From an uncultured Gemmatimonadaceae bacterium (GTDB lineage Bacteria; Gemmatimonadota; Gemmatimonadetes; Gemmatimonadales; Gemmatimonadaceae): a stretch of DNA of 64,000 nucleotides. Below are positions 9,536 through 48,748 of this stretch, piece after piece. Under the pieces are notes generated by a model. That model was not told the DNA's origin. It did not search any database and saw only the letters and a program-made list of their open reading frames with translations. The number at the start of each line of letters is the position of its first letter. The stretch's first letter is position 1. Position numbers and translations under genes: made by a program. The DNA lies in NCBI GenBank assembly GCA_963781585.1, contig CAWAGQ010000007.1:32001-96000 (forward strand). Direction: 5' to 3'.

Positions 9536-9537
9536 CG

Positions 9538-9966
9538 TCAGGCTTCCTTGTTCACGACGATCTGGTCGCCGCGCACGTTCACGGCATACGGCGTGAGCGG
9601 CCTTGGCGGCGGCCCGGAGACGTTGCGGCCGTGGAGATCGTAGTGGCCGTTATGGCACGCGCACCAGATATCGGTATTCTCGGCGCTGTACTGCACGATG
9701 CAGCCGAGGTGGGTGCACACGGCAGTGAACGCGCGAACTTCGCCGGCCGAAGTCCGGATGATGAGGGCCGGCTCGTTGCCGAACTTGAAGATCTGGCCGG
9801 AGTTGGGTTTCAGATCCGACGGCTTCATCGTGAGCGTGACCGAGTTGACGGAAGACTCCCCGGCCTCGGGGGGCACGACGTAGCGAAACATCGGATAGAA
9901 CACCGCGATGAGCAGGCCACCGAACGTGGTGCCGAGCAGCCAGTCGATGAACTTCTTGCGGGTCAT
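9538..9966 (-). CDS. Rieske 2Fe-2S subunit
   Basis: CTHLGC and CACH boxes, GPPPRPL, Tat-like TRKKF followed by a TM helix. ATG at 9966. Confidence 0.93.
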
Positions 9967-10070
9967 GGCGGTCGGGTGCGGAGTGGTGTGTCGAAGCGGA
10001 TCTGCCGAGCCGCGGAGCGTTAGGCGGTCTTCGTGAGCGGCCGGACGCGCGTCACCCTCGGCCCCCGGCG

Positions 10071-11408: not shown

Positions 11409-11415
11409 GCGGGGG

Positions 11416-12885: not shown

Positions 12886-14414
12886 CACATTCCTCCTGGC
12901 GCCGGCAACCCTGGCTCGGCGCCAAGGGCCCAGGTGCATGTGATGGTGGCGCGCAGCTGGCTCCAGTTCGGTCCGTTCTCCGGGACCCTTCCCACGTGTC
13001 GGTAATCGAAGACGGACGCGTTCAGCCGGCTGCGACTATTTAGGCGCAGTGCGCCATCCAGTCCTATTCCCACCACCGTGCCACTGCGCACACGCAGCTC
13101 GTCGGCTGTCTGGAAGGCCGTGCCGCTGAGGGCGACGGAATTGCCGTCCGCGAGGGAGCGACGCAACTGCAGACCTGCCCGGCTCCTCGCGGTGCCGAAA
13201 CCCAGGTCGAGACCGTACTGCGCATCCACGGCCCATTGCGGAGCGAGGCGGACCGCGCCGGAGCCGTTGAGCGACCACCCGCTGGAGTGCAGCGGTGCGA
13301 AGTCGACGGCGACGTCGGTATCGAGGTAGTGGCGGCGTGAGACCTGGCCGTCGAACGTGACCGCGCCGTCGCCGCGGCGCCAGCTCGCACCCGCTCCGCC
13401 GTCGACGTAGCCGACGGCGCCGAACGCGCCCCAGATGGTCCACAGATCGAAGTACGGCCGGTGTCGGCGGGCGAAGGCACGGACGGTCACACGCGGGTTG
13501 AGCGTGTAGTGAAACTGTCCGCGCAGCTCGTTCAGATCGGCCGTCGCCAGGTCGAGTTGAGCTGCCCAGTCGAACGACATCCGGTCGCCACGGAGCATTC
13601 CGTTCGTTGCCGCCCGCTCCGAATAGAGTCCGTTGCGATTCGCCGCAATGGTGCGCTCGTAGACGCCGGACAGCGACAGCGCCGGGACCGGCCGCGCCTG
13701 CGCGCGCAAGCCGAGAAGCACACCGCGCGACTCCGGGGCAAATGGCTCGACGGCCGCCAGGGCGCCACTGGTCACCGGCTCGTTGAGCCCGTTCTCCAGG
13801 GTCCATCCGCCGTACGCTTCGACGCTCAGCGCCCTCGTCGGGCGCAGCAGCACCGACGCGCCGTCGAAGTTGTTGAATGTCAGCCCGCTCACGTCCCACT
13901 GCCGGCCGGCACGCACGCGATACCGTGGGCGCTCCAGTTCGAGGTAGGCCTCCAGGGCGTCGAAATGGTCGTTGGCCTGCGGCCAGAGACTGTTGCTTCC
14001 TGCAACGACGGCCCGGCCGCGAACGTCGGCGTAGAAACGTACACCGCGTCCAAACCCCCACGCGCTCACGCGCAGATCCTGGAGCGCCGGTGCGGAGGAG
14101 GCCGTGGTTCCGCTCCCGTATACGTAGCAGTACGGCGCCGGATCGACGCACTCGACCGTGCGCCCGTCGGGGGCGCGGCGCAGCAGCGCATCACCCGTTG
14201 TGGTGGACGACAACACACTGTCGATCCGCAGCGGTCGCAGCTCCACGTAGTTCATGGTGGTGGTACCGCTGATCCGGACATGCTGTGCATCCACCCGCCG
14301 CGCGGAGACCAGCAAGGTGCTGAGGAGCGCGGCCACGAGCGTCCCGCGTGCGCGGAGCGACGCGCGACGCGCATCGATATCGAATCGAACGTCGAGAGGG
14401 CGCCGGGAATTCAT
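12885..14414 (-). CDS. Outer-membrane beta-barrel (porin of a porin-cytochrome conduit)
   Basis: Signal peptide (VDA-Q), many amphipathic aromatic-ended beta strands (YRVRAGRQW, FDGASVLL, VEAYGGW), no heme motifs, sandwiched and coupled between cytochrome genes. Confidence 0.8.
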   Translation of the reverse strand: MNSRRPLDVRFDIDARRASLRARGTLVAALLSTLLVSARRVDAQHVRISGTTTMNYVELRPLRIDSVLSSTTTGDALLRRAPDGRTVECVDPAPYCYVYGSGTTASSAPALQDLRVSAWGFGRGVRFYADVRGRAVVAGSNSLWPQANDHFDALEAYLELERPRYRVRAGRQWDVSGLTFNNFDGASVLLRPTRALSVEAYGGWTLENGLNEPVTSGALAAVEPFAPESRGVLLGLRAQARPVPALSLSGVYERTIAANRNGLYSERAATNGMLRGDRMSFDWAAQLDLATADLNELRGQFHYTLNPRVTVRAFARRHRPYFDLWTIWGAFGAVGYVDGGAGASWRRGDGAVTFDGQVSRRHYLDTDVAVDFAPLHSSGWSLNGSGAVRLAPQWAVDAQYGLDLGFGTARSRAGLQLRRSLADGNSVALSGTAFQTADELRVRSGTVVGIGLDGALRLNSRSRLNASVFDYRHVGRVPENGPNWSQLRATITCTWALGAEPGLPAPGGM

Positions 14415-15286
14415 CGGGACGCACCCCCGGTCTGATTGGCCGAACCCTGGGGCGGTTGGAGCATGTGGCACCGGGCGCAGACCCGGCCCGGTTCATGGTT
14501 TACCCGGTCCGCATGGCAAAGGAGACATTCATCGCGCGACAGCGTGGCAACCTTCACTGGAGCGTTCTGGTGACATCCCGAGCCCGCGCACCCGTTGTGA
14601 GCGGCGTTGGTATGAACGCCGGCCGGCGGTGGTTGGTGGCAGGTGCGACAGTTGGCCTGGCCTTCGTGGTGCACGTGGCAGGATCCGCAGGCCTTCGTCG
14701 GCACGAGTTGCGGCTGGTTGATGTGGCAGTCCGAGCACTGCACGCTCGTGTGCCATCCGTGGTCGAAGGTCACGCTTCGCTGCCGCGGCGTGGGCCACAC
14801 CGACAGTTTCCATTCGAGATTGAGCGTCACGGGCCCGCGGCTCGCGGGCGCGGCATGGCAGCTCATGCACGGTCGTCCTTGCGCTGTGGCGTGATGGCAG
14901 CCGGCGCACTGATCCCCTGCGGGTGGCGGGCCCGTGGCGGGTACCGGGGCGTGGCATGACGTGCAGGCCACATTCGTGTGTGCCGCATGTCCCGGTACCG
15001 CGGCGTGGCAGCGCACGCATTGGAGGCTCCGGTGCTTCTCGTGCCGGAAGGCGTACGGACCCAGGGAAACGGCTACCCGAGAAGCCCGGGTCAAGGCGCT
15101 GGTTGGGACGGTCGGAGGCTGCGAGGAGGCGGCGGACGAGTCCACGGCCGTGGAGTCCCCCGAGGCGGCCATCCCTGAATCCCCGGCCGCCTGCTCGGGC
15201 GCCCGCGAGCATGAGAGAACCGCGACGGCCAGCATCAGCCAGCAGGAAACAACCCGCACAGACCCCTCGAGTCTGGTCCCGGGCAT
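14411..15286 (-). CDS. Lipoprotein decaheme cytochrome c
   Basis: Lipobox (AVLS-C), Ser/Ala-rich tether, 9 CXXCH plus 1 CX4CH (CAGSGCH), cytochrome c3/c7-like FxHxxH motifs. Confidence 0.9.
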   Translation of the reverse strand: MPGTRLEGSVRVVSCWLMLAVAVLSCSRAPEQAAGDSGMAASGDSTAVDSSAASSQPPTVPTSALTRASRVAVSLGPYAFRHEKHRSLQCVRCHAAVPGHAAHTNVACTSCHAPVPATGPPPAGDQCAGCHHATAQGRPCMSCHAAPASRGPVTLNLEWKLSVWPTPRQRSVTFDHGWHTSVQCSDCHINQPQLVPTKACGSCHVHHEGQANCRTCHQPPPAGVHTNAAHNGCAGSGCHQNAPVKVATLSRDECLLCHADRVNHEPGRVCARCHMLQPPQGSANQTGGASR

Positions 15287-15314
15287 TAATAAGGATCGGC
15301 GCGTCCGCGCGCCA

Positions 15315-16763
15315 TCAAGGCGCTATTCTCCTGGCCGGGAGAATGTTCTCGAGCGTGATGCCGGCGACCGCCGGGATGCCATAGCTCTTCTGGAGCTGCT
15401 TGATGCTGGCGGTGAGCAGTGCCTCCATCAGGAATGGATTGTGGACCGGCGAGCCGGCCATGGCGCCGAGGGCAGCATTGAACTTGGCTCCTTCGCCAGG
15501 GGTGATCACGCTGTCCGTATTGACGAACGCCGATTTGGGCACCTGCGCCAACATGGCGTTGACCTCTTGCACCAGCAGGGAGATGCGCTCGGTGGCCACC
15601 TCCTTGGCGTTGCGGGCCACGCTCTGGTCGCCGTGACAGCCGCTCCTGGCGCAGGCGGCGAAGCTGCGCTGCGACTCGTCGCAGCCCTCGTCGACCGTGG
15701 GCTTGCCAGTGGCGTCGAGGCAGGGAATGGGCACGAAGAGGTGACCTGTGGAGTTGAACACCACCGCCCCGCTCGCGTCCTTCACATCCATGCGTGCCAC
15801 ATGACAGGTGACGCACAAATCCTCGTTGCGCGAGGAGCCGTGGGTTCCGTGGATCGTCGTGTCAACGGGCCCGAAGTCCGGCGATCGCCAGCCGGCCGAG
15901 CCGAGGAGGAGGGGACCCTGCGGCGACATCGGTCCGCGCTGGTTCGCGGCGATGTCCGGCTGGGAGCGATAGTGGTGGCACTTCATGCACAGGTTGTCGC
16001 TGACGCTTGCCACCGTAATCGGGTAGCGCAGTTGCTTGTCATTGGTCGCGTCGTGGGGATCGTGGCATACCCCGCACACGATGGGCATGTGACCAGCAAC
16101 GGCAGCCAGGCTGTCCTGCTCGGCGTATCGCACGTCGGCGCCCCACGCCTGCAGTGCGCCGTTGCCGGTGTGGCAGTCACGGCACGGCTCGTTTACCCCT
16201 GCGCTGCTGCTTGCGCGCGGCACCAGGCCGTGCGCCGACTGCGACCACTCCTCCAGGAACGGATACTGCGCGGTCTGATGGCACTCGCCGCAGCCGTTGG
16301 TGAGTGATTGCCCCACGAACATGGAGGCGAGCGGCTGCGAGACGTCAGGGTTCGTCACATGCGTCAGCCCCGGACCATGGCAGGATTCGCACTGGACATC
16401 CTGATAACGGGCGTTGCGCGTCGCCGTCCAACCGACGTTTGCGTCCGTCACGAAGTTCCCGTTGGCGTTCACGGTGTGGCATCCTTCACAGGCCGCCGAC
16501 GACATCCCGCTGTTTCGCAGATCCGTCCAGGCGTGGGAGTGCGCGGTCTGCTTCCACTCGCCGAGCTTGCCGATGTGACAATTTCCGCACACCGGCGTGC
16601 GCGCCGCGGTGTCCGAGAAGCCGAGGAACCCCTGCGCGGCCTCCGGCGGAGAATTCGCGGACGAATTCGGCGCGACGATCTGCGTCTTGTCCACGCAGGC
16701 AGCGACAGCGAGCGTCAGGATCACGACTGCCGAGAAGCGATTCACCCTGTTCTGCACATCCAT
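15315..16763 (-). CDS. Lipoprotein nonaheme cytochrome c
   Basis: Lipobox (AVAA-C), 8 CXXCH plus 1 CX4CH (CARSGCH), helical C-terminus. GGAGGG RBS before ATG at 16763. Confidence 0.92.
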   Translation of the reverse strand: MDVQNRVNRFSAVVILTLAVAACVDKTQIVAPNSSANSPPEAAQGFLGFSDTAARTPVCGNCHIGKLGEWKQTAHSHAWTDLRNSGMSSAACEGCHTVNANGNFVTDANVGWTATRNARYQDVQCESCHGPGLTHVTNPDVSQPLASMFVGQSLTNGCGECHQTAQYPFLEEWSQSAHGLVPRASSSAGVNEPCRDCHTGNGALQAWGADVRYAEQDSLAAVAGHMPIVCGVCHDPHDATNDKQLRYPITVASVSDNLCMKCHHYRSQPDIAANQRGPMSPQGPLLLGSAGWRSPDFGPVDTTIHGTHGSSRNEDLCVTCHVARMDVKDASGAVVFNSTGHLFVPIPCLDATGKPTVDEGCDESQRSFAACARSGCHGDQSVARNAKEVATERISLLVQEVNAMLAQVPKSAFVNTDSVITPGEGAKFNAALGAMAGSPVHNPFLMEALLTASIKQLQKSYGIPAVAGITLENILPARRIAP

Positions 16764-17175
16764 GCAGGTACCCTCCCCAGTGGCACGCAGCCCTGATGGT
16801 AATTCCGCCCCCTGGGCAGCGGCCGCGTTATGCAAAGCGTCGGACGCGTTTCTCGGCTTCTGTGTCAGGCGTTTCCGCCGTCCGTTGCCCGGGTTTTCAC
16901 CGCGATCCCAGCGGCCCTGCAGCGATAACGCCTCGAAGAAGATTGACTGAGAGGGAAACCCCTACTGGTCGCGTCGGACATTTGCCGCGATCCGTGCCCC
17001 GATTCCGTCTGACATGGATGGTCTGCACGACGGGTGCGGGGCGCGCGCAATGTCACCGAAGCTGTTGTCTGGAAAGAGTTTGGGATGAAACGTTAGGCGA
17101 ATCGGATTCGGGGCAGCGCGACGACAGCCGGTGCTTTCCCCACGAGCATGGATCCGTGCCGAGACTCCGGTGATG

Positions 17176-25304: not shown

Positions 25305-27992
25305 ATGCTGCACCGGATTCGCCTGTGGCTGCGCGTGCTCCTCCACGCCGAGGCGCTCGAGGAGGACATGGACCTGGAGATGCGGCAGCACCTCGACCGC
25401 GCTACCGAGCGCTTCGTCGCCCGCGGCCTGTCGGTGCGCGACGCGCGGAGAGAGGCACGCCGGGAATTCGGCGATTTCGATGATGTCCGCGACGAGGCGC
25501 GCAACGCGCGCCGGGGACGTACCGCCATGGAACGATTCATCACCGGATTCCGTCAGACGATCCGCCGCCTGGTCCACGAGTGGCGCTTCTCGGCTGCCGT
25601 CGTGCTGGTGCTGGCGGTGGGAATCGGGCCGACCGCCGCGATCTCCTCGGTGGTCTACGAGATTCTCATCCGGCCGCTCGAATACCGCGACCCCGACCGT
25701 CTCGGATTGGTTCGCATCACGCTGGGACAGATCGAGAACCATCCCGGTCTGTCGCAGGGTGAGGTGCTCGACCTGCGACGCGCCGACCTGTTCGAGAGCG
25801 TCGAAGCCGAGGCCCGGCTGGATGAGGCCTCGCTGGGAACGGCGCCCGATCTGGTCCCGCTGCTGCGAATCGGAATCAGTCCCGGCATGCTCTCCATGCT
25901 CGGCGTGAAGCCGATCCTCGGTCGCGACTTTCTCGAGGAGGATCTGTTCACCCCTCCGCCTCCGGGGCAGGCGCGTCCCCAACCGGGTGCTCCGGGGGGA
26001 GCCGTTCCCCCGCCGCCGCCAATACGGGTGCTCCTCGATTACGCGACGTGGCAGAACCAGTTTGGCGGCGCAGGCGACGTGATCGGGCGATTGCTGCAAC
26101 TGAACGGCAATCGCGCCGAAGTGATCGGCGTCCTGCCGGATGGCTTCCGTCTGGTCACCGGGCGCGGCGTCCCGCAACGCGTGGACCTCTACTATCCCAT
26201 CCGCCTGACCGAGTACCGGAATTTCTGGGGACAACCGACGCTCGTCAGGCTGAAGCCCGGGACGACGTTTGCCCAGGCCGAAGCGAGGCTCGCCTCGATC
26301 GCGACCGCGATGAAGAGCGAACATCCCGACCTGTATCCGGACCAGCTGCGACTCACCGTGACGCCGCTCCTCGCCGACATGACCCAGGCGGCGAGACCGG
26401 CGCTTCGCGCAGCGGCGGCAGCGGTGCTGCTGCTCTTCATCATCGCGTTCGCGAATGCCACCGCATTGCTCGTGGCGCGCCTCAAGACCAGGGAAGTGGA
26501 TGTGGTGGTACGCTCGGCCCTCGGCGCACGATCGGGCGCGCTGGTTGGCGAGGTGGTGCGCGAAAGCATCGTCCTGGCCGCGGCCGGTGCGGTGGTGGGA
26601 GCCGTGCTGGCGATGGCGGCGACGATCGGCATCCGCGGGATCATTCCGAGAACCGTGCCCCGATGGGACCAGATCGGCGTCGGTTGGGAGCAACTGCTGT
26701 GCGCCACCGCCCTCACCCTCGCAGGGCTCCTTCTGCTCGGCGTGATCCCGGCGTGGAGAATTTCGCGCGGTCCCGACTTCAGGATCCTGCGGTCGGGATC
26801 GGTGCAGGGCGGGAAGGCCGAGGGCGCACTGTCGCGACTCGTGCTGGTGGGTTCGCAGATGGCCTTCACGGTGGTGCTCGGATTCGGCTGTGTGCAGCTG
26901 GCGCGCAGCGCCGTCGCGCTGCGGCGGGTCGACCTGGGCTTCGACCCCAACGTGCTCACGCTCCAGGTTCCCTACGACTTCCGGCGTTACCGGTCGGACA
27001 CCGCACGGGCGCTGCTCTATCAGCACATCCGTGATCGCGTGCGACAGGTGCCCGGCGTGACGGCGGTGGGCGTCACCACGCACATCCCACTAAGCGGATC
27101 GATGATGATGGATGGCTATGAGGCGGATCTTTCGAAGGAGCCGTCGTTCAACCAGTCGGCGAACTACCAGGGCGTGACGCCGGGGTACTTCGCGGCACTG
27201 CGAATCCCGTTCGTGGACGGTCGCGACATCACCGATGTCGAGGATGCCGCGCAGCAGCCGGTCATTGTCGTCGACGAGTCTCTGGTGCGCACGGTATTCC
27301 CGGGTGAGCAGCACGTCCTTGGCCGGGTGCTCCGGCTGGGGTGGGGGTTGCAGAACGCGCAGATCGTGGGAGTGGTGCGGCACGCACGGACCGTGGACGT
27401 GACGCGCGAAGTGCGCCCACAGATCTACGCGCCGATCGGGAACCTGTTCCAGCAGGCGGGGATCGTGACCGTGCGCGCCTCGGTCGATCCGCGATCGCTT
27501 TCGAGCGCGATCATCAGCGCCATCAACGAGGTGGGGCCCGGACGCGCGGTGTCGAAAGTCGCGATGCTGACCGATAACGTTTCGGCTGCGACCAGTACCC
27601 TCCGTGCGGTGACGGGACTCGTCACGCTCCTCACCCTGTCGGCGGGACTGCTTTCGGCGGTTGGCCTCTATCTCGTGATGGCATACATCATTCACCAACA
27701 TCGTCGCGCCACGGCCATCCGGTCGGCACTCGGCGCCACTCCGCGACGCGTGATGTGGGAGCACTGCAGGACGAGCGGTCTCGTCGCCGGAGCCGCGCTT
27801 CCCGCGGGTGCGCTGCTGTCCCTGGCGGTGGCGCCGTTCTTCGGTGATCTGGTGTATCGGGTTGCTAATCGCGATCCCGTCAGCCTCTCGGGCGCGATCG
27901 TGCTGGCCGCCGTGGCCGGCCTGCTCGGCACGTACCTTCCGGTCAGAAGATCCGCCAACGTGAATATCCTCAACACGCTGCGGGAGATGTAG
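25305..27992 (+). CDS. ADOP-type duplicated ABC permease
   Basis: Permease-prefix domain (EEDMDLEMRQHL..ARREFG), two MacB/FtsX halves, Pro-rich insertion. Confidence 0.9.
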   Translation: MLHRIRLWLRVLLHAEALEEDMDLEMRQHLDRATERFVARGLSVRDARREARREFGDFDDVRDEARNARRGRTAMERFITGFRQTIRRLVHEWRFSAAVVLVLAVGIGPTAAISSVVYEILIRPLEYRDPDRLGLVRITLGQIENHPGLSQGEVLDLRRADLFESVEAEARLDEASLGTAPDLVPLLRIGISPGMLSMLGVKPILGRDFLEEDLFTPPPPGQARPQPGAPGGAVPPPPPIRVLLDYATWQNQFGGAGDVIGRLLQLNGNRAEVIGVLPDGFRLVTGRGVPQRVDLYYPIRLTEYRNFWGQPTLVRLKPGTTFAQAEARLASIATAMKSEHPDLYPDQLRLTVTPLLADMTQAARPALRAAAAAVLLLFIIAFANATALLVARLKTREVDVVVRSALGARSGALVGEVVRESIVLAAAGAVVGAVLAMAATIGIRGIIPRTVPRWDQIGVGWEQLLCATALTLAGLLLLGVIPAWRISRGPDFRILRSGSVQGGKAEGALSRLVLVGSQMAFTVVLGFGCVQLARSAVALRRVDLGFDPNVLTLQVPYDFRRYRSDTARALLYQHIRDRVRQVPGVTAVGVTTHIPLSGSMMMDGYEADLSKEPSFNQSANYQGVTPGYFAALRIPFVDGRDITDVEDAAQQPVIVVDESLVRTVFPGEQHVLGRVLRLGWGLQNAQIVGVVRHARTVDVTREVRPQIYAPIGNLFQQAGIVTVRASVDPRSLSSAIISAINEVGPGRAVSKVAMLTDNVSAATSTLRAVTGLVTLLTLSAGLLSAVGLYLVMAYIIHQHRRATAIRSALGATPRRVMWEHCRTSGLVAGAALPAGALLSLAVAPFFGDLVYRVANRDPVSLSGAIVLAAVAGLLGTYLPVRRSANVNILNTLREM

Positions 27993-32505: not shown

Positions 32506-35139
32506 CTACTCGCTCCGGATCGCGGCGAGCGGCGACACGCGCGCCGCGCGCCACGCCGGCACCAGGGCCGCAGCCGTCGCTGCAGCCAGAAGCATGGCCG
32601 TCACGCCGGCGAACGCCACGGCATCGGTCGCCCCGATTCCGAACAGCAACGCCGCGATCCAGCGCGTAAGCACCAGCGCCGCGACAATTCCGACCGCGAC
32701 GCCGATCGCAGCCCGCTGCAGCGCGCGACGCAGCACGATGCCGAGAATGCGCCACGTCCCCGCACCGAGCGCGCGCCGGATCCCGATCTCTCCCCGGCGG
32801 CGCGAGACGTCCGCCGTGAAGACGCCGTAGATCCCGACGCCCGCCAGCAGCAGCGAGGTGAGCGAGAACGCGCCCAGCAGGAACGTGGTGAAGCGGTCGC
32901 GCGCGAGCGACCGGTCCACCAGATCCTGCAGCGGCTCGACGTTGTAGACCGCGGCCATGGGATCGATCGCGGCGCTCGCCTGCCGCAGTGCCTGCATGAG
33001 TACGGACGCGTCGACGGTTCCTCGCACCACGACGTCATTCACAAGGTCGGGATACCGGGCGCTGGCCAGATACGCGGTCGGGCGCGGCGGTGTCCGCGGA
33101 TTCACGAGATGCACGTCGCCTACCACGCCGATGATCTGCGCGTGTATTCCCCCGTTGAGGGTGATGTCCACCGCGCGGCCGACCGGAGTTGCGGGCAGCT
33201 CGAGCGCCTGGACAAGCGCCTTGCTCACCACCACCCGTGGCGGCCCGTCCGGTTGCTCGTGCGCGGCGAACGGCGTGCCCGCCAGCACGGGAATGCGCAG
33301 CGTCCCGAACAGCGCCGAATCGGCAAAGCGGATGTCTGCGATGGGAGATTCGGTGCCGGGCGCCGGCGGATGCGTCGGGTCGGTCACCCTGGTGGAGGGG
33401 GCACCGCCGCGGAACGGCCGCACGGTCACCACGCTCGCTGACTGCACGCCTGGTGCGGCTCGCAGCTGCGCAACCAGCCGGTCGAAGAAGCGGCGCTGCG
33501 CGTCGGCGGATGCATAACGATCACCGGTCAGGGCCACGCGGGCCGCCACGACCTGGCGTGCGTCGAATCCCAGGTTCACGGCGCGGAGATTGGCGAAGCT
33601 CCGCGCCATCAGACCCGCCAGCACGGTGAGCACCAGCGACAGCGCGATCTCGGCGGTGATGAGCGAACCGCCGCCGAGGCGCGAGGTCGCCCGCATGCGC
33701 GTGGCTCCCACCAGTGTCGCCGGAGTATCCGCGTCGCCTGCTCCCCGAAACGCGGCGACCGTGCCGAACACCAGCGTGGCGAGTGCGGTCGCGACGATCG
33801 CCGCCAGCAGCACGGTTGAATCAACCCGGATGGTATCGACGCGAGGGACGCCGGGGGGCATCAGGATCGTCAGCACACGCACGCCTGACGCGGCCACGCC
33901 AAGTCCCGCCGCGCAGCCGAGCGCGCCAAGCAGCGCGCTCTGGGTGAAGAGCTGCCGCGCCAGACGCGATGTCGTCGCGCCGACGGCGCGGCGGACCGCA
34001 AGCTCGTGCTCGCGCCGGCGGGTGAGACCCAGCGTGAGGTGGGCGACGTTGGTGACCGACATGAGGAGCAGGAGCAGTACGCCGCCGAGCAGGAGAAGCA
34101 GCGGGAGACGCACATCACCTGTGATCTCGCGGGCCAGGCCGTTGGCGGCGATGGACCATCCCTTCTGCTCGGGATTCTCGACTGCCAGCTGCGTTCCGAG
34201 ATCGGCGAGTTCGGCGTTGGCGACGTCGAGCGATACACCCGGCCGCAGACGCCCGACCACGTGCAGCACGTGTCCCCAGGAGCGATTCTGCGGCGACGCA
34301 CCGAACGGCAGCCAGAAGTCCTGCTCGTCGATCCATCCGTAGCGCGGTGGGTCGAATCCTTCCGGCATCACACCCACGACGGTGACCGGCTGGGCGTCGA
34401 TGATCAGCGATTGTCCGACGGCAGCGCTGTCGCCACCGAACCGGCGCTGCCAGTACGCGTGGCTCAGGATCACCACGCTGGCGCCGCCGTTCGCCGACTC
34501 GGCATCCGTGAATTCACGTCCGAGGGCCGGCGTCACACCGAGCATGCCAAAGTAGCCCGGCGACACCTGCACGCCACTCACACGTTCCACGGTGGAGCCG
34601 GTGCGCACCGTCACCGGGTCGGGGATGAGCGCCGCCATTCTGGTGAACACGCGCTGGCGCGCGCTCAACGCCTCGAAGTTCGCCACCGAAACGACGTTGT
34701 ACGCGCTGCTTCCGGTCCGGCGCTCCCACACCGCGACCAGTTGCTGCGGGTCGCGATAGGGAAGGGGGGTGAGCAGCACCGCATTCACCACACTGAAGAT
34801 GGCCGTGGCTGCGCCGATGCCGAGCGCGAACGTCGCGACCGCGGCGAACGAGAAGCCGGGGTTGCGGGCGAGGAGTCGCGTGCCGAACCGGAGGTCCTTG
34901 AGGAAATCCTCGGCCGCGCTGTTGCCGCGGGCGTGGCGCCCTTCTTCCTTGAAGCGCTCGATGCCGCCGAAAGCGACGAGGGCCGCGCGCCGCGCTGCGT
35001 CGGGCGCCATTCCGCGCGCGACGTAGTCGGCGGTTTCGCGCGCGATGTGATCGCGCATCTCGGCGTCCATCTCGCGCTCGACGGCGTCGCGCCGCGCCAC
35101 GAGGTGGAGGCGGTGGCGGATGCGCAGGATCCAGGTCAT
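32506..35139 (-). CDS. ADOP-type duplicated ABC permease
   Basis: EREMDAEMRDHI..RRAALVAFGG, DLRFGTRLLARNPGF, EIGIRRALGA, PAWRAARVSP.AAIRSE. Confidence 0.92.
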   Translation of the reverse strand: MTWILRIRHRLHLVARRDAVEREMDAEMRDHIARETADYVARGMAPDAARRAALVAFGGIERFKEEGRHARGNSAAEDFLKDLRFGTRLLARNPGFSFAAVATFALGIGAATAIFSVVNAVLLTPLPYRDPQQLVAVWERRTGSSAYNVVSVANFEALSARQRVFTRMAALIPDPVTVRTGSTVERVSGVQVSPGYFGMLGVTPALGREFTDAESANGGASVVILSHAYWQRRFGGDSAAVGQSLIIDAQPVTVVGVMPEGFDPPRYGWIDEQDFWLPFGASPQNRSWGHVLHVVGRLRPGVSLDVANAELADLGTQLAVENPEQKGWSIAANGLAREITGDVRLPLLLLLGGVLLLLLMSVTNVAHLTLGLTRRREHELAVRRAVGATTSRLARQLFTQSALLGALGCAAGLGVAASGVRVLTILMPPGVPRVDTIRVDSTVLLAAIVATALATLVFGTVAAFRGAGDADTPATLVGATRMRATSRLGGGSLITAEIALSLVLTVLAGLMARSFANLRAVNLGFDARQVVAARVALTGDRYASADAQRRFFDRLVAQLRAAPGVQSASVVTVRPFRGGAPSTRVTDPTHPPAPGTESPIADIRFADSALFGTLRIPVLAGTPFAAHEQPDGPPRVVVSKALVQALELPATPVGRAVDITLNGGIHAQIIGVVGDVHLVNPRTPPRPTAYLASARYPDLVNDVVVRGTVDASVLMQALRQASAAIDPMAAVYNVEPLQDLVDRSLARDRFTTFLLGAFSLTSLLLAGVGIYGVFTADVSRRRGEIGIRRALGAGTWRILGIVLRRALQRAAIGVAVGIVAALVLTRWIAALLFGIGATDAVAFAGVTAMLLAAATAAALVPAWRAARVSPLAAIRSE

Positions 35140-35200
35140 GGCCGGTGCGTTTGACGAATGGGAGCGAGGTGAGGTGGCCCGCGATGGCGACCCGGGGCGC

Positions 35201-35252
35201 GATACATTGACATTCGACAATACGGGGCCGTATTGTCGAATGTCAAGGTATC
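35201..35252. promoter_or_regulatory. 52-bp near-perfect palindrome containing back-to-back sigma70-like promoters/operators
   Basis: 25-bp arms with one mismatch (19-bp perfect core TTGACATTCGACAATACGG), 2-nt centre; TTGACA-N18-TATTGT reads on both strands. Confidence 0.7.
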
Positions 35253-35428: not shown

Positions 35429-36628
35429 TTACGGCAACCACTGATCGGGGGTCCAGCTGGTCTCCAGTCGCCCCGAGAAGAGCAGGAATCCCAGGCACAC
35501 CGCGTTGAACGTGACCGCGAATCCAAGCAGTCGCCAGCTCGTGGACTTTCGGAGCCTGGGCCAGCGGCGCGTCCAGCGCACCACCATGCTGTGCCCGATC
35601 AGCAGGGTCGCGTGATAGAGGCCGTAGAGGATGTAGCGCTGTTCGAGTCCGTGCCACGCTCCCATCAGGAGAAACGTCACCAGGAATCCGATGTGAGACG
35701 CGATGTACCGGTTTCCGCCAAACCAGCGCCCTCTGGCCGCGGCCATCGCGAACCGCATGTAGATGTGGTCCCGGAACCAGGTCGAGAGACTGATGTGCCA
35801 GCGATTCCAGAAGTCCACGATATTCACGGCCGCGAACGGACGATTGAAGTTCCCGGGCGTTCGCACCCCGAAGAACCGACTGACTCCGGTCGCGATTGCG
35901 CTGTAGCCGGCGAAATCGAAGAAGAGATAGGAACTGTAGACGTACATGTACTTCACAACGCCCACGAATCCGGGGGATTCGGCCCGAGGGAGCACGAGTT
36001 TCTGGATCAGGGCCGCAATCACGAACTTGTAGAGCAGGCCGCGAAAGATCTGGCTCACGCCTTCGTCGAACCCGGCCAGGAACGTCTGGCGCTCCGGTAC
36101 CGCACGATAGTCCTCGGCGAACCGCCGGTAGCGGTCAATCGGGCCGGAGGAGATGGTGGCCGGGAACATGAGATAGGCCAGGTAGGTCCCCGGCTCGATC
36201 CGCGTCTCCAGCCGGTCCTGCACGATGATCAGGGCATCGACGGCGCGGAAAGTCACGTACGAAATCCCGATGAATGCCGGTCCGGCGCCCGAGCCGGACG
36301 CGGTCATCACCTTGACCATGATGAGCGGCGCAGCACTGAGGACGATGGCGGCAGCGAAGACCCCCGTCGACTTGCGATGGGCGCGTGATCGCGCGAACGC
36401 GGCCACGAGACCCAGCTGGAACGCCGCGAACGCGACAGCGATCGCGAGTTCCGGGATGGCGTGACCCCGGAGGACGGTGTGACTCGGGCCGAAGTTGACG
36501 ACCGCCATGAGGACGGTCGCCGCGAGGATCCACCCCCGCCGGGAACGCCCGGCCATACCCAGGAACACCGCCGGCAAGCCGACGGTCAGGATGACGACGA
36601 AATAGGGAAGGTCGGTATAGGGAAGCAC
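35429..36628 (-). CDS. dltB: D-alanyl transfer MBOAT protein DltB
   Basis: GISYVTFR, ISSGPIDRYRRF, YLFFDFAGYS, NFNRPF, DFWNRWHISLS.WFRD, MGAWHG...YGLYH, all DltB-type MBOAT motifs. Confidence 0.92.
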   Translation of the reverse strand: MLPYTDLPYFVVILTVGLPAVFLGMAGRSRRGWILAATVLMAVVNFGPSHTVLRGHAIPELAIAVAFAAFQLGLVAAFARSRAHRKSTGVFAAAIVLSAAPLIMVKVMTASGSGAGPAFIGISYVTFRAVDALIIVQDRLETRIEPGTYLAYLMFPATISSGPIDRYRRFAEDYRAVPERQTFLAGFDEGVSQIFRGLLYKFVIAALIQKLVLPRAESPGFVGVVKYMYVYSSYLFFDFAGYSAIATGVSRFFGVRTPGNFNRPFAAVNIVDFWNRWHISLSTWFRDHIYMRFAMAAARGRWFGGNRYIASHIGFLVTFLLMGAWHGLEQRYILYGLYHATLLIGHSMVVRWTRRWPRLRKSTSWRLLGFAVTFNAVCLGFLLFSGRLETSWTPDQWLP

Positions 36629-36637
36629 GCCCGCTGC

Positions 36638-38107
36638 CTAACGCACCATCTGCGCGAGTGCCTGGCGATCCAGCTTTCCATTCGCGGTCATGGGCAGGGC
36701 GTCGAGGCAGAAGATCCGGCGCGGAATCATGTAGCCGGGCAGTCGTTCCGCCAGCCTGGCTTTGACAGACGCCGTGATGTCGCTCGCCCGGTCCGACGCC
36801 GGAGAATCCAGCACGACGAAGGCGGCCAGGGAATGCGGCAGACCGTTCCTCGGCACGACGACCGCCGCGGCGTGCTGGACGCCGGGCACGGCGCGCAACT
36901 GCGCTTCGACGTCGCCGAGTTCGATCCGATAGCCGTGCAGCTTGATCTGATCATCCTGCCGTCCATCGAAGAAAAGCAATCCGTCCTGGACGTGGCCCCG
37001 GTCCCCGGTGCGGTAGGCCCACTGCCCGTTCCAGCGAACGAACGCCCGGCCCGTCAGTTCGGGAGCGTGAAGATAGCCGGGGCTCACGTTGGGTCCGACG
37101 ACCAGGATCTCGCCCCGCTCTCCCGCCGGCTGCGACACCAGCTGGTCGTCAACCACGACGACCTGGCACCCTGGTGCTGGCCGGCCAACCGGAAGCGCCG
37201 GGTAACGGTGGAGCAGCCCCTGGTCGACACGCACCGAGGTGGTGGCGACGGTGGTCTCGGTTGGACCATACGTGTTCCAGACCTCGGCCGCAGGAAACCG
37301 CTTCAGCAGGGTCTCCGCGGTCCCGGGCGCGAGCGTCTCACCGCAGAAGAGCAACCTGGCAAGGCGCGGCAGCATCGCGGCATCGAAGCGCCGTTCGGTC
37401 AGACAGAACTGCGCGAAGGTCGGGGTGGATACCCAGGTCGTCAGGTCGGCGTTGGCCAGGATGCGAAAGGCCCGACGCGGATCCGCGACGTCTTCCCGGG
37501 TGAGACTCACGAGCGTTCCTCCCGTCACCAACGCCGGATACACGCTCATGACCGAGAGGTCAAAGGAGTAGACGGCCTGGTCGAGAAACCGCTCGCCGCC
37601 GGGAGCGAACCCGTGCTCCTCGACCATCCAGCCCACGAACTGCTCGAGGTTGGCGCGAGTAATGGGCACGCCCTTGGGGTCCCCGGTGCTGCCCGAGGTG
37701 AACATGATGTATTGCAGCTGCTCGCCGGCAGGCTGCACGGGGACTGCTGTACCGCCCTGGCGAACGATCCGGGCGATCTGGGAGGGGTCCAGGACGAGCG
37801 AGGCCCGAGCGAGCGCGATGATTCGTTGAACGCGCACGTCGGGGATTGCGCTATCGACCGGGACGTAGGGATGCCCGGCGAGCAGACAGCCGAGGAAGCC
37901 AACCAGCATCTCGGGCTCCTTGTGTCCCCGCACCAGGATCGGCGCACCCGGCGTCACACGTTGGGCGGCGATGAAACCGGCGACCGCGCGCGCGCCATCC
38001 GCCAGCGCTCCGTAAGTCAGCGTTCGACCCTCGCTTTCGAGCGCCGCGCGATCGGGAGTCGCTACGGCCCAGCGGTCCACGGCCGCGACGACATCGATCG
38101 GGATCAA
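36638..38107 (-). CDS. dltA: D-alanine--D-alanyl carrier protein ligase DltA
   Basis: Stand-alone adenylation domain: FTSGSTG.PKGV, SFDLSVM, LFCGE, NTYGPTE, YRTGD, QIKLHGYRIELG, LPMTANGKLDR. Confidence 0.93.
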   Translation of the reverse strand: MIPIDVVAAVDRWAVATPDRAALESEGRTLTYGALADGARAVAGFIAAQRVTPGAPILVRGHKEPEMLVGFLGCLLAGHPYVPVDSAIPDVRVQRIIALARASLVLDPSQIARIVRQGGTAVPVQPAGEQLQYIMFTSGSTGDPKGVPITRANLEQFVGWMVEEHGFAPGGERFLDQAVYSFDLSVMSVYPALVTGGTLVSLTREDVADPRRAFRILANADLTTWVSTPTFAQFCLTERRFDAAMLPRLARLLFCGETLAPGTAETLLKRFPAAEVWNTYGPTETTVATTSVRVDQGLLHRYPALPVGRPAPGCQVVVVDDQLVSQPAGERGEILVVGPNVSPGYLHAPELTGRAFVRWNGQWAYRTGDRGHVQDGLLFFDGRQDDQIKLHGYRIELGDVEAQLRAVPGVQHAAAVVVPRNGLPHSLAAFVVLDSPASDRASDITASVKARLAERLPGYMIPRRIFCLDALPMTANGKLDRQALAQMVR

Positions 38108-38235
38108 AAGCCCTGATAGATGAAGTTCGGCGGCGCGGCCGTCCGGAACGAGTCGACGGCCATGATCGCCAGCAGGATGGCGATGTAATAAGCGACGCGG
38201 AGCGTCAGGCTGGCGAGGCTAGCGAAGCGAATCAT
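38104..38235 (-). CDS. dltX: DltX D-alanyl shuttle peptide (43 aa; absent from the ORF track)
   Basis: Hand translation MIRFASLASLTLRVAYYIAILLAIMAVDSFRTAAPPNFIYQGF*: one TM helix and a C-terminal FIYxxF motif. Stop overlaps the dltA start. Confidence 0.9.
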   Translation of the reverse strand: MIRFASLASLTLRVAYYIAILLAIMAVDSFRTAAPPNFIYQGF

Positions 38236-39451
38236 GGTAAAACGCATTCAGGACAGAGTCGAGAACCACCCAGCCCTTGGACGTCGGGTGCTGAAAGGGA
38301 TCCTTGAGCAGCGACGGCTCATACTCCCGTTCCTCGAACGTCAGGCACTCGATCGCGTATGACGCGGCGACTGCACGCAACCGTTCGTGATATTGCTGCC
38401 TGGCCGATGCGGATATACCCCAATAGTCCATGAACGCACCCGGGAAAGGGATACTGAGCACCAACGTGCGCGCACCGAATGTGTGAAGGAGTCGGAACAG
38501 CAGATCCAGGTCCTCCCACCGAGGCTCGGTGCGCAAGGACCTGAGAAACTCCTCGTCCGATCGGACTCCCTTGAGGTTCCGGTATTCGCCCGACTGCTCG
38601 CTGAAGCGGTCCGGGAGAAACCCGAAAGCATGGTCCGGGACGCTGCGCGCATATCCTGCTTCGGCATCGCGCTTCAGGGCGTCCCAGTCCAGACGCGCGG
38701 GGTGCCGCCGTACCGGCGTACGATACTCGGGGTGCGTCCACAACAAGGCGAGCACGTTGGCCTGGTCGCCCGCTTCGAGGGCGACGTTCTGGAGGCGCCC
38801 TAGCAACTGAAGCGCGGGGTTCAGGAACCAGCGCCGCCAGTCACCGGCTGCCAGCCCTTCGAGCGTGACCCGAAGGAATGCGTCGCGTTCCAGAACCTCG
38901 GGAAACGCGAGAAGGCGGCGCGCCAGTTGCTGCTTGAACCGGGCATCCAGCCCGGGGTTGAACACCGCCTCTCCCGTCTGGAGCCGGGAGAAGTTCGCGA
39001 TGTAGCCTGTGCGACTCATCGGCATGGCAGTGAACATCAGCGGGGTGAGGATCACCACCACCCTGCGGTTCCGGAGTCCCTCGCCGACCGATGCCAACTC
39101 CGCAAGGGTCTCGAGGGTTTCTGTGGCCCGCGATCCCACCTGGAAGACCGCGAAGCCGGTCGGGAAACGCGCGAAGAACTCGGGGGCCCGATAGTCGCTT
39201 TCGCGGACCAGCTCCGAACTCCCGTACACCGGGAGCAATGCCGAATCTTCGAAGGCGGCACGCTGGAGCTCGACCCCATACGTCTTCCGGGTCAGCGTGA
39301 GCGGCGCGATCCGCTCGATGTGGGCCAGGGACTGGCGGCGGGAGACGACTCCCAGGCCTGCCACGATCGCGACCCAAAGGACCGCCGCAACGAGCGCGGC
39401 CGTCAGGTGCGGAAGCGCTCCCGGTCGCGGGGAGGCGTCCCGCGACATCAC
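38219..39451 (-). CDS. dltD: D-alanyl transferase DltD (SGNH-like, N-terminal anchor)
   Basis: N-terminal TM helix, LLPVYGSSEL, C-terminal KDPFQH...KGW; lies between dltC and dltX. Confidence 0.88.
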   Translation of the reverse strand: MMSRDASPRPGALPHLTAALVAAVLWVAIVAGLGVVSRRQSLAHIERIAPLTLTRKTYGVELQRAAFEDSALLPVYGSSELVRESDYRAPEFFARFPTGFAVFQVGSRATETLETLAELASVGEGLRNRRVVVILTPLMFTAMPMSRTGYIANFSRLQTGEAVFNPGLDARFKQQLARRLLAFPEVLERDAFLRVTLEGLAAGDWRRWFLNPALQLLGRLQNVALEAGDQANVLALLWTHPEYRTPVRRHPARLDWDALKRDAEAGYARSVPDHAFGFLPDRFSEQSGEYRNLKGVRSDEEFLRSLRTEPRWEDLDLLFRLLHTFGARTLVLSIPFPGAFMDYWGISASARQQYHERLRAVAASYAIECLTFEEREYEPSLLKDPFQHPTSKGWVVLDSVLNAFYHDSLR

Positions 39452-39729
39452 GAATCAGGGCCGCGGCCGGATGCCTGCGCAGCGTCGCGCAGATTCACGC
39501 GCCGTTCCACGTCCTCGATGATCGCGAGCGGTGTTGCCCACGCTTCGCGATCGAACTCCGCCGGAGAAATCTCGATATCGAAGACCTCGCACACCCTAAC
39601 GACGAGGTCGACGGTTTGAAGGGAGTCGACCACGTGCGTGGCGAACAATCTGAGATGCGGATCGCGGCGAACCTCGTCAGTCTCTGCGACGTCGGCCAGG
39701 ATGTCCAACACCTGCTCAGCAAGCGTCAT
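39448..39729 (-). CDS. dltC: D-alanyl carrier protein DltC
   Basis: QVLDILADV...LF...VDSLQTVDL (phosphopantetheine Ser)...EFDREAWATP, the DltC-specific pattern. Confidence 0.92.
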   Translation of the reverse strand: MTLAEQVLDILADVAETDEVRRDPHLRLFATHVVDSLQTVDLVVRVCEVFDIEISPAEFDREAWATPLAIIEDVERRVNLRDAAQASGRGPDS

Positions 39730-46336: not shown

Positions 46337-48748
46337 TCAATCCGCGCGCAACGCCTGCACCGGGTCGATCCGCGTTGCAAATCGCGCCGGCACGTACGCC
46401 GCGACCAGTGCCACCACCAGAAGGAGTGCGGCTGACCCCACCATCGCGATCGGATCCGCCGGACTGACTTCATACAGCAGGGACGTCAGCAAGCGCGACG
46501 CCGCGAGCGCGGCCGCCAGTCCGACGATCACGCCCACCCCGGTCACGACAAACGCCCGGGCGAGCACACCACGCCGCAGGCGTTCGGGCGACGCGCCGAG
46601 CGCCGACCGCACGCCGAGTTCACGCATGCTCGCGCGCACGGATGAGGCCATGACGCCGTACAACCCGATCGCCGCCAGCAGCATCGATACCAGGGCGAAG
46701 GCGCCCAGCAGCAGCGCGCTCACCCGCGGCTGCATCAATGGGGCGGCGAGGAGGTCGCGCATCGGCTTGGCGTCCCAGAGCGTGAAGTCGGGATCGATCT
46801 CGCGCGCCGCCCGGCGCAGCGCGGGAAGAACGGTCGCGAGGTCTGTGGAGGTGCGCACGGCGAAATTGCCCTGCCAGAACGATTGACGCCACGGCAGGTA
46901 CACTGACGGCGTCGCCTCACGCAGCGAGCGATAGCGGATGTCGCCCGCCACTCCGACGACCGTCCGCCAGGTCGTGGAGTCGGGGCCCCAGAAGTAGATG
47001 TGCTTGCCGATTGGGTCGCCGTCAGGCCACAGGCGTCGCGCGGTGGCCTCGCTCACGACCGCCACCATTGCAGCGTTTTCCCGGTCAGCGCTTGTGAAGG
47101 AACGACCGCGACGGATCGGGATCCCGAACGTGCGGAAGTAGTCCGCGCCGCCGGCTTCCATGGGGAAGAACGCGTTCGACTTCATCTCCTCGCGCGTTTG
47201 CCCCTCGACATCGAGCCGGCTGATGAAGACGCTGGCGCCGAAGAACGGCGGAATGACGACCGGTGTCACGGCGGTGATCCCCGGCACGGCGCGCAACGCC
47301 GGCAACAGCCGGTCCCCCAGCGCGTTGACCATGGCCTGGCTGAACTGACCGGCCGAATCGAGGTATGCGCGCGGCGGGAACGAAAACGAGAGCAGGGAAA
47401 GTCGATCGGGATTGTAGCCGAGCGCGATACCTTGCAGCCGCTCGAGACTCCGGCCGAGCAGCCCGGCGCCAGCCAGCATCATCAACGCCAACGCGACCTG
47501 CGAGGCGACGAGCGCCTCACGCATGCGCCGGCGCGCTCTGGTCTCGGTGCCGGCGCGTGAATCGAAGCGCAACGGGGACGCAAGAGACCCGCGTGAGGCG
47601 ATGAGCGCGGGGACGACCCCGAACAGCAGCACGGCGGTCAGGGTCACGCCAACAGCGATGCTAATGGGCGCCCCGCTCAGGCCGATGACGTCGGTGCGCG
47701 GGAGTTTCGGCGGCGCGTACGCGAGCAGGACGCCGGTGAGCGCGGACGCGCAAAGCAGCCCGAGTGCGCCGCCGGCCACCCCGAGGAGCCCGCTCTCCAC
47801 CACCAGCTGCCGCACGATGTCGCCCGATCCGGCGCCGAGCGCCCGTCGCACGGACAGCTCGCGACCGCGGCCTGCAGCGCGCAACAGCAGCAGGTTGCCG
47901 ACGTTCACACACGCGATGAGGAGGAGGAGCCCCACCGCCGCCGCCAGCATGACCAGAATGGGCCGGATGTTGCCAACGACCACTTGCGTGAACGAGGCGA
48001 CATGAACGCCGTCGTACGCGCGGTCCGGGAACAGATGCCGCATGGTGCCGAAGAACTCGGTCTGCGCCGCCAGCGGAGTCGCGTCAGGCGCGAGGCGCGC
48101 AATCGCAATCACCGACAGGTTAGCCGACGGCTGCCAGGCGGGCATCCAGAGCCCGACCCCCGACGGATAGTCGAGACCAGCGGGCGCCACCCCGACAATG
48201 CGGTAGTTCAGCCGCTGGTACGGCTCCATCAGTCGGCGACCGACTATTCCCGAATCACCCCCGAACACCGTGCGCCACGTGCCATAGCTGATCACAAGTA
48301 CGGGTTCGGCCCCGGCCACCTCATCGTTCGGTTGGAGGAGACGACCGAGCACCGGTCGCGCGCCGAGCACGTCGAAGAAGTTGCCAGTGACGGTCGTTCG
48401 ACTGATGACCAGCGACCGATCACCGTCGAGGAACGGGGCGCCACTCGCACCCCAGTGCGCGACCCCTGCGATGTCGCGCATCGTCCGGCTGGTCGCTGCG
48501 ACCTTGGGCAGATCCTCGCGCAGCAACCAGAAGTCGGCGTTGGGGTCGCCCCGGTACGTGAACAACTGGACGATACCACGGGCGTCACGCACCGGGAGCG
48601 GGCGCAGCAGCACGGCGTCGAACACGGTGAACATCGCGACGGCCATGCCAATGCCGATCGCCAGGATCAGCACGGCCGTCGTCGCGAACGACGGCGAGTG
48701 TCGGAATCCGCGGAGCGCGAGGCGGGCGTCGTGCGCGACGCGATTCAT
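46337..48748 (-). CDS. ADOP-type duplicated ABC permease
   Basis: DARLALRGFRHSPSF, LLIACVNVGNL, RELGVRSALGA, VPARFATRIDPVQALRAD. Confidence 0.92.
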   Translation of the reverse strand: MNRVAHDARLALRGFRHSPSFATTAVLILAIGIGMAVAMFTVFDAVLLRPLPVRDARGIVQLFTYRGDPNADFWLLREDLPKVAATSRTMRDIAGVAHWGASGAPFLDGDRSLVISRTTVTGNFFDVLGARPVLGRLLQPNDEVAGAEPVLVISYGTWRTVFGGDSGIVGRRLMEPYQRLNYRIVGVAPAGLDYPSGVGLWMPAWQPSANLSVIAIARLAPDATPLAAQTEFFGTMRHLFPDRAYDGVHVASFTQVVVGNIRPILVMLAAAVGLLLLIACVNVGNLLLLRAAGRGRELSVRRALGAGSGDIVRQLVVESGLLGVAGGALGLLCASALTGVLLAYAPPKLPRTDVIGLSGAPISIAVGVTLTAVLLFGVVPALIASRGSLASPLRFDSRAGTETRARRRMREALVASQVALALMMLAGAGLLGRSLERLQGIALGYNPDRLSLLSFSFPPRAYLDSAGQFSQAMVNALGDRLLPALRAVPGITAVTPVVIPPFFGASVFISRLDVEGQTREEMKSNAFFPMEAGGADYFRTFGIPIRRGRSFTSADRENAAMVAVVSEATARRLWPDGDPIGKHIYFWGPDSTTWRTVVGVAGDIRYRSLREATPSVYLPWRQSFWQGNFAVRTSTDLATVLPALRRAAREIDPDFTLWDAKPMRDLLAAPLMQPRVSALLLGAFALVSMLLAAIGLYGVMASSVRASMRELGVRSALGASPERLRRGVLARAFVVTGVGVIVGLAAALAASRLLTSLLYEVSPADPIAMVGSAALLLVVALVAAYVPARFATRIDPVQALRAD

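Follow-up and report, generated by a model that had tools for sequence, protein, structure and literature searches.

The five-gene Dlt pathway, DltXABCD, is treated as a teichoic-acid system of Firmicutes (Bacillota), and a survey counted dltX in 809 species, 805 of which are Firmicutes (PMC5541007). Homologues are also found in diderm bacteria, and the molecule that accepts the D-alanine (D-Ala) there is a long-standing question. In Dickeya, loss of dltB leads to 99% killing by polymyxin, the substrate being given as unknown (PMC3544676), and the target has been named as "probably" lipopolysaccharide (LPS) (PMC5541007). The Bordetella dra genes add D-Ala to the outer membrane (PMC4448142, excerpt). 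The subject of this work is a complete dltC-dltD-dltX-dltA-dltB operon in an uncultured Gemmatimonadaceae bacterium, found on a stretch of 64,000 nucleotides (positions 32,001 to 96,000 of contig CAWAGQ010000007.1, GenBank assembly GCA_963781585.1), which is called the window below. The relay chemistry, the dlt loci of the diderms Dickeya and Bordetella, and the names DltB and DltD, which databases already give to these proteins, are known; a literature search, in which subscription journals were poorly covered, found no paper on dlt in the phyla treated here or in diderm soil bacteria.

The Dickeya/Pectobacterium dlt genes (dltD and dltBAC) and Bordetella dra resemble the window operon in being Dlt-type relays of diderms with an unidentified acceptor and a link to cationic-peptide resistance. 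The enterobacterial type is represented here by one proxy, an Enterobacter plasmid locus assigned to the Dickeya type by its gene order. In this proxy the order is D-X-B-A-C, the DltA Cys is replaced by Ile and the catalytic His of DltB by Asn; its DltD is highly divergent, and it falls on a long branch of its own. The window system stands much nearer to the Bacilli type. The proxy locus is an insertion-sequence-flanked cassette (L152:3502-7554, Enterobacter cloacae plasmid NZ_CP071862.1) on a plasmid typed as conjugative, and a partial DltB match is found on a Klebsiella plasmid record.

AlgI/AlgJ and PatA/PatB acetylation systems also combine an MBOAT with an SGNH protein and use a tyrosine shuttle motif (PMC12148441, excerpt). 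They use acetyl-CoA, have neither carrier nor ligase, and carry the motif fused to the MBOAT C-terminus, whereas the window DltB ends without it and is accompanied by a separate DltX microprotein, DltA and DltC. MprF, one of which is encoded in the host genome, likewise lowers the negative charge of the envelope by adding an amino acid, but it is a single, tRNA-dependent protein that uses L-amino acids.

The reading favoured here is that an intact relay would move a D-Ala ester to a non-teichoic envelope glycan. The relay itself is very probably functional, judging from its conserved residues; given a working relay, a glycan acceptor is an evenly balanced matter, and the combined reading is therefore tentative, with a chance somewhat short of even. 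In this diderm the glycan would probably be LPS-type or another lipid-linked surface sugar chain.

Operon and host genome

The operon lies on the minus strand (35429-39729), where five tightly packed open reading frames (ORFs) run without internal stops (Table 1). The likely start of dltD is the ATG at 39448, which overlaps the dltC stop, and an alternative start is at 39451. Four of the proteins pass NCBIfam cut-offs: DltC with TIGR01688 (78 bits, cut-off 52) and also NF003464, DltD with TIGR04092 (157 bits, cut-off 150), DltB with TIGR04091 (411 bits, cut-off 375), and DltA with NF003417 (511 bits, cut-off 476), although DltA stays below TIGR01734 (499 bits, cut-off 560). DltX, which has no match in Pfam or NCBIfam, is identified by its C-terminal motif and by alignment with 27 homologues. 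The best solved relatives are B. cereus 3fcc for DltA, S. thermophilus 6bug/8jem for DltB, and 6pfx, 6o93, 3bma and 7dxm for DltD.

Table 1. Genes of the dlt operon and their positions in the window
Gene	Position	Strand	Product and features
dltC	39448..39729	-	D-alanyl carrier protein, 93 amino acids; phosphopantetheine serine Ser36 (VDSL)
dltD	38219..39451	-	SGNH-fold transferase, 410/409 amino acids; single N-terminal membrane anchor; GSSE (77-80), D384-x-x-x-H388
dltX	38104..38247	-	47-amino-acid single-helix microprotein; C-terminal end NFIYQGF; shuttle tyrosine Tyr44
dltA	36638..38107	-	D-alanine adenylating ligase, 489 amino acids; TTG start overlaps dltX stop
dltB	35429..36628	-	MBOAT, 399 amino acids; 9 nt downstream of dltA; no fused C-terminal shuttle motif

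The host genome has 5.7 Mb in 17 contigs with a guanine-cytosine (GC) content of 66-68%. GC across the operon is 64-67%, and the codon-usage percentiles among 2147 genome genes are 0.4 for dltC, 5 for dltD, 14 for dltA, 44 for dltB and 54 for dltX. Full-length DltD and DltB homologues of 86-88% identity are each listed for a 35,749-bp contig in ENA. Since the operon is internal to a contig of 486,885 bp and these homologues lie on another contig, a chimeric contig is unlikely on such grounds. A Firmicute contaminant is ruled out by the GC of about 66%, the long contig and a branch apart from the sampled Bacilli.

The host genome encodes LpxC, WaaA and MurF, which marks the organism as a peptidoglycan-containing LPS diderm. 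In LpxC it shares 66% identity with a same-family genome, 62% with G421, a metagenome-assembled genome (MAG) titled Gemmatimonadota, and 34-43% with three others. The match to G421, together with a DltA tree that includes L046, makes Gemmatimonadota the most likely phylum of the host. The genome also encodes an alanine racemase and a phosphopantetheinyl transferase (PPTase), and DltB is the sole MBOAT found in it. The original prediction, made from the letters of the window, thus stands in its description of a complete five-gene operon with all named motifs in five uninterrupted ORFs and of a diderm host, and its host-like composition is roughly right.

Donor side of the relay

The B. cereus DltA pocket is built by Phe196, Asp197, Cys269 and Lys492, and Cys269 favours D- over L-Ala (PMC4176424, excerpt). 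The equivalent residues of the window DltA are F182, D183, C255 and K478. Among relatives of the window operon, called the lineage below, the Phe, Asp and Cys are kept in 46 of 46 DltA sequences, as in 9 of 9 Bacilli, and the Lys in 45 of the 46. The key residues of S. thermophilus DltB, His289, His336 and Tyr345 (PMC11035591, excerpt), correspond to H278, H326 and Y335 in the window; in the lineage the catalytic His (H326) and the Tyr are present in 39/39 sequences and the second His (H278) in 36/39. The shuttle motif of DltX is defined as FxYxxF (PMC12148441), and its Tyr is invariant in the 28 aligned sequences. Out of 51 distinct small ORFs with FxYxxF from 81 loci, 50 are placed immediately upstream of a dltA match and the remaining one (L047) is not. 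Judged from these residues, the donor side is canonical, and the lineage conserves the D-Ala pocket to the same degree as Bacilli do.

In a three-chain model of DltB, DltD and DltX, DltX scores 0.82 against 0.58 for the best control, which retained DltB, and 0.00 for unrelated partners; this is a prediction, and it may be due to resemblance to the known complex. Of 157 solved pairs 116 attain the score mark, as against 2 of 215 mismatched ones, a calibration that holds here only in rough terms. Agreement between runs is at least 79% of contacts, partner pLDDT (predicted local distance difference test) is at least 72, and the confident interface includes both DltX 40-47 and DltB 325-327.

The same residues bear on the alternative that the operon is silent, moves a substrate other than D-Ala, or leaves D-Ala on a protein of the envelope, which has been reported for Bordetella dra. 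Such an explanation would suit the patchy distribution, with true operons in 7 of the 401 genomes from the phylum. It is unlikely, given five intact ORFs in which every catalytic residue is kept, a D-Ala pocket as conserved as in Bacilli, and 86-88% identical homologues that are also full length.

DltD and the acceptor side

The window DltD is, as in Bacillota, a membrane-anchored SGNH protein with Ser, Asp and His residues; its predicted model has a pLDDT of 84 and a long N-terminal helix. In the lineage the second Ser of GSSE is present in 108/108 sequences and the His in 107/108. The window DltD is only 21-27% identical to Bacilli DltD, and the differences include the region that has been placed near the acceptor. 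In L. plantarum DltD, Gln133 and Trp134 have been docked against a glycerol-phosphate chain (PMC13653941, excerpt). From the Q-W pair and its spacing, these residues are presumably the Gln and Trp of the SPQWF motif of Bacilli. The window DltD has LTPLMF in this place and also lacks the Trp of HxGW. The SPQWF Gln is present in 9/9 Bacilli and 2/109 lineage sequences, the Trp in 9/9 and 26/109, and the QW pair in 0/109; without L046 the counts are 2/108 for Gln and 26/108 for Trp. Apart from the SPQWF residues, the window system has the protein-level features of Bacillota DltXABCD (its five components with the pocket of DltA, the serine of DltC, the histidines of DltB, FxYxxF in DltX and the Ser and His of DltD), while the DltB-DltD-DltX complex is a prediction.

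The relatives also differ from Bacillota in that their dltD is often duplicated or detached. Two to four copies of dltD are found in 17/81 loci, and paralogues of one operon mostly differ at the SPQWF-equivalent motif. Where genomes have a lone dltD, dltB is located elsewhere in 5/5 tested. DltD probably sets the target, because the acceptor-side motif is remodelled and variable and because dltD is the gene that is duplicated or moved. Three lone dltD genes lie apart from one another in a single MAG titled Proteobacteria (L018, L036, L062), and Chloroflexota operons have up to four in tandem (L019, L026, L038 and L063 are listed with them). The whole-domain net charge of DltD, -3 to +31 in Bacilli with a lineage median of -5, is confounded by composition and is not used as evidence.

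Extra extracytoplasmic domains, often found on the DltB and DltD of relatives, are a further difference from Bacillota. An unannotated, probably immunoglobulin (Ig)-like domain is fused to 16/120 DltB and 13/150 DltD homologues, and lectin-like LamG domains are fused to the DltD of some relatives; both are absent from the window copies. The former has about 100 amino acids with the pattern GWAWD...GxGxHGF and occurs once or several times at the C-termini of DltB and DltD as independent fusions (examples are P0181, P0193, P0197, P0026, P0047 and P0151, and it is found at L061:11578-13164 and 14 other loci). It has no Pfam family, an Atlas lead points to an Ig-like fold, and it is absent from the host genome. 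As a clue to the acceptor it is ruled out, since it is also found on proteases, AlgJ-like proteins and methyltransferases.

Distribution, gene order and phylogeny

PF04914 matches 8 of 401 genomes of the phylum, one of which (G013) has an AlgI-type pair, leaving the 7 true operons mentioned above, the host genome included. A single-protein query matched 0/40 near relatives, among which the same-genus genome is only 64% complete. An alignment search with DltD finds 213 relatives among GTDB species genomes, and the best 77 loci belong to Chthoniobacterales, Anaerolineae/Chloroflexia and single MAGs titled Gemmatimonadota, Deltaproteobacteria, Spirochaetales, Proteobacteria and Dormiibacterota. 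Within the taxonomic order to which Chthoniobacter flavus belongs, 21/121 genomes have a DltB match, and within that of one Chloroflexota carrier 2/121. Strain Ellin428 of C. flavus (locus L061) is a cultured, non-pathogenic carrier with a full operon.

Gene order is labile in this lineage. Among 36 loci with full-length dltA and dltB, 13 have C-D(n)-A-B, 12 have D(n)-C-A-B, 5 have no called dltC, 6 have other orders and none has A-B-C-D, and a Lactobacillus crispatus record has dltC-X-A-B. The order C-D-X-A-B, originally predicted to be a circular permutation of dltXABCD, is real. It is nevertheless one of several, and since dltC precedes dltX-A-B in Lactobacillus crispatus too, gene order is ruled out as a novelty; the constant feature is dltX directly before dltA. 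Nor is the operon peculiar to the host organism; it is part of a multi-phylum lineage whose members already carry Dlt names in databases.

A tree of 23 chosen DltA rows (LG+G4) splits 4 Bacilli from 19 others at 100/100. The window copy is sister to MAGs labelled Myxococcota and Spirochaetales (100/99), inside a group of its own phylum (98/95). Monophyly of the own-phylum copies is rejected (approximately unbiased test, p-AU 0.0014), the groups having been named after an earlier tree was seen. The same sister pair of the window copy, and the Bacilli as one side of a branch, are recovered in trees of DltB, of DltD and of a 57-row set of DltA. The Firmicutes in these trees are Bacilli, with Clostridia, Negativicutes and other non-Bacilli left out; the outgroup is a long branch and the DltB tree places the root elsewhere, so that the trees do not fix origin or root. 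By these trees the operon is of a lineage outside the sampled Bacilli, and this lineage is patchy across phyla. Inter-phylum transfer is supported, because the sister pair of the window copy consists of other-phylum MAGs and own-phylum monophyly is rejected, and the nesting suggests that transfer went outward from Gemmatimonadota.

Clustering of 1087 ORFs from 81 loci and the window, judged by representative sequences, shows that only dlt genes, transporters and lineage synteny are common across phyla. One locus, L014 (G108:C53), has dltB-C-D-X-A beside ORFs that read by eye like family-2 glycosyltransferases and a sugar epimerase, and an ORF similar to its glycosyltransferase-like one is also near dltD in L071, L081 and L091.

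Search for the acceptor

Envelope markers were counted in dlt-positive genomes, mostly MAGs of unknown completeness, G421 being among the 27. LtaS is over cut-off in 0/26, LicD is found in 0/5, and TagB/F has a strong match in 1/27, none in the host genome. LpxC is present in 16/16 non-Chloroflexota carriers and in 0/11 Chloroflexota carriers. By these markers the acceptor is not a classical teichoic acid, and it is not LPS in every carrier, because LtaS and TagB/F are so nearly absent and the 11 Chloroflexota carriers have no LpxC. In the host genome, a search that covered neither TagD nor LCP families found no PF04464 and no LicD, and the LtaS model gives 47.5 bits against a cut-off of 970. 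The system thus departs from that of Bacillota with respect to a teichoic-acid acceptor, the host being an LPS diderm in which no LtaS or Tag was found. A periplasmic glucan, one of the acceptors proposed in the original prediction, is unlikely, since MdoG is absent from the host genome and present in 3/26 carriers.

The same prediction noted the lack of ltaS, tag and glycosyltransferase genes near the operon, which agrees with the 46 window ORFs scanned. Genome-wide, the search for LtaS, OpgB and Tag confirms that no teichoic-acid synthesis is found and no LtaS is over cut-off, although one protein of the LTA-synthase/OpgB superfamily (C11:438767-440749) does exist, far below the cut-off at 49 bits. 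On this protein depends the explanation that the acceptor is a cryptic polyol-phosphate, either a teichoic-like polymer or a glycerol-phosphate substituent, which this protein or an unrecognised enzyme would make. It has about 5 membrane helices, a Thr-type LtaS/OpgB-like motif set and weak OpgB and LtaS matches, and the same-family carrier G140, which also has a TagB/F match, shares it at 64%. Its closest structure is, however, Vibrio VP1736 and not LtaS, its gene is unlinked on a contig other than that of the operon, and the query finds it in 3/27 carriers; with the loss of the SPQWF Gln and Trp as well, a polyol-phosphate acceptor is quite unlikely. Host contigs C11, C17 and C7 also encode an expanded set of roughly nine sulfatase-fold proteins that have a membrane anchor and a SHAS-type motif (for example at C11:150484-152397). 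Tandem arrays of sulfatase matches are found in relatives (G122 C3:1883918-1898966), and one sulfatase-type gene adjoins the G108 dlt operon. The one host protein of this set that was scanned is nearer to sulfatases than to LtaS and is rejected as an LtaS candidate.

A phospholipid head group is another acceptor that would need no teichoic acid. D-alanyl-phosphatidylglycerol or D-alanyl-cardiolipin would then be formed in the outer leaflet of the inner membrane, and dedicated acceptor genes would be unnecessary, which fits a cassette without conserved neighbours. Excerpts of published work report MprF-independent D-alanyl-phosphatidylglycerol in B. subtilis and D-alanyl-cardiolipin in Vagococcus (PMC4792211), and a phosphatidylglycerol molecule in the DltB cleft (PMC11035591). 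PgsA is over cut-off in 14/26 carriers, but 9/11 Chloroflexota carriers have no match, and the host genome and G140 have partial matches below cut-off, none of them full-length. The loss of the residue docked to glycerol-phosphate, the MprF-type gene already present in the host genome, and the 2-4 dltD paralogues, which are hard to reconcile with one lipid, make this acceptor improbable without being negligible. The host PgsA/MprF observations are at C4:85049-85291 and C13:190319-191161.

Peptidoglycan glycan strands could be O-D-alanylated by analogy to PatA/PatB O-acetylation. To our knowledge no O-D-alanyl peptidoglycan has been described, which counts against this acceptor. MurF is the only tested envelope marker present in 27/27 carriers, diderm and Chloroflexota alike; as peptidoglycan is near-universal, this co-occurrence is almost weightless, and a near-universal acceptor would leave the variable DltD motif and the paralogues unexplained. 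MBOAT-SGNH pairs with the same FxYxxF shuttle do acylate peptidoglycan (PMC12148441, excerpt), and the proposal is nonetheless quite improbable.

Proposed mechanism and its weighing

The steps proposed here for a glycan acceptor follow from the conserved residues and the Firmicutes mechanism. DltA would adenylate D-Ala, supplied by the host alanine racemase, and load it on the phosphopantetheine arm of DltC Ser36, which the host PPTase would attach. From DltB His326 the D-Ala would go to DltX Tyr44 on the periplasmic face, and from there to the serine of DltD. This last enzyme, which has its anchor in the inner membrane, would finally move D-Ala to a hydroxyl of a molecule within reach of its periplasmic domain. 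Carriers would likely benefit from reduced negative charge at the surface and from tolerance to cationic peptides or metals. The D-alanylated non-teichoic envelope molecule first proposed for this locus keeps its basis in the complete relay, the D-Ala pocket, the diderm host and the failure to find teichoic-acid synthesis, while the molecule itself stays an inference.

Several points weigh against a glycan acceptor or against this account of DltD. LPS is excluded as the target for the 11 carriers from Chloroflexota, so a glycan reading needs different glycans in different hosts; one Chloroflexota carrier has an LtaS-like protein (263 of 970 bits), and 8/11 have weak partial PF04464 matches (E 6e-8 to 3e-6). 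No neighbour gene is conserved across phyla, and none of the 46 window ORFs scanned is a linked glycan-synthesis gene. In lineage DltD, the triad Asp is one residue farther from the His (DxxxH) than in Bacilli (DxxH) and is replaced in 21/108. The role of the SPQWF Gln is taken from docking, and this residue could bind D-Ala or DltX instead. The Dickeya system cited as precedent is probably divergent and of another kind, and its dltD mutant is not sensitised (PMC5541007). Finally, the host genome is 93.5% complete and 7.2% contaminated.

Surroundings of the operon

A perfect 19-bp inverted repeat with a 2-nt centre (35207-35246) lies between the dltB stop and an ADOP permease gene. It has a sigma70-like TTGACA-18-TATTGT on each strand (2 found against 0.4 expected). 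It is possibly a PadR-type operator or promoter of the permease, and it could in addition terminate dlt transcription. The window has four MacB/FtsX duplicated permeases (5699-8359, 25305-27992, 32506-35220 and 46337-48748), of which one is confirmed as ADOP family and one has a PadR gene directly upstream. On the minus strand, 8450-16835 encodes several c-type multiheme cytochromes together with a cytochrome b and a 528-amino-acid ORF that has no Pfam match, a cluster reminiscent of a porin-cytochrome electron conduit.

Significance

A broader reading, possible though doubtful, is that a hitherto overlooked second full-Dlt branch in several phyla of abundant soil bacteria (Chthoniobacterales including Ca. 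Udaeobacter, Anaerolineae and Gemmatimonadota) would make new D-alanyl-esterified non-teichoic envelope molecules, with interchangeable DltD paralogues choosing the target. In its boldest form, diderms and Chloroflexota would share one target, for instance O-D-alanylated peptidoglycan. The value of the operon lies in a directly testable acceptor question and in a remodelled, duplicated DltD, rather than in gene order or uniqueness, and Chthoniobacter flavus Ellin428 offers a cultured carrier. As the donor side of the lineage is that of Bacilli and its acceptor side is changed, the lineage separates the two experimentally. If the glycan reading is true, common soil bacteria would have a new D-alanylated envelope molecule, and the lineage would show which DltD residues choose the target.

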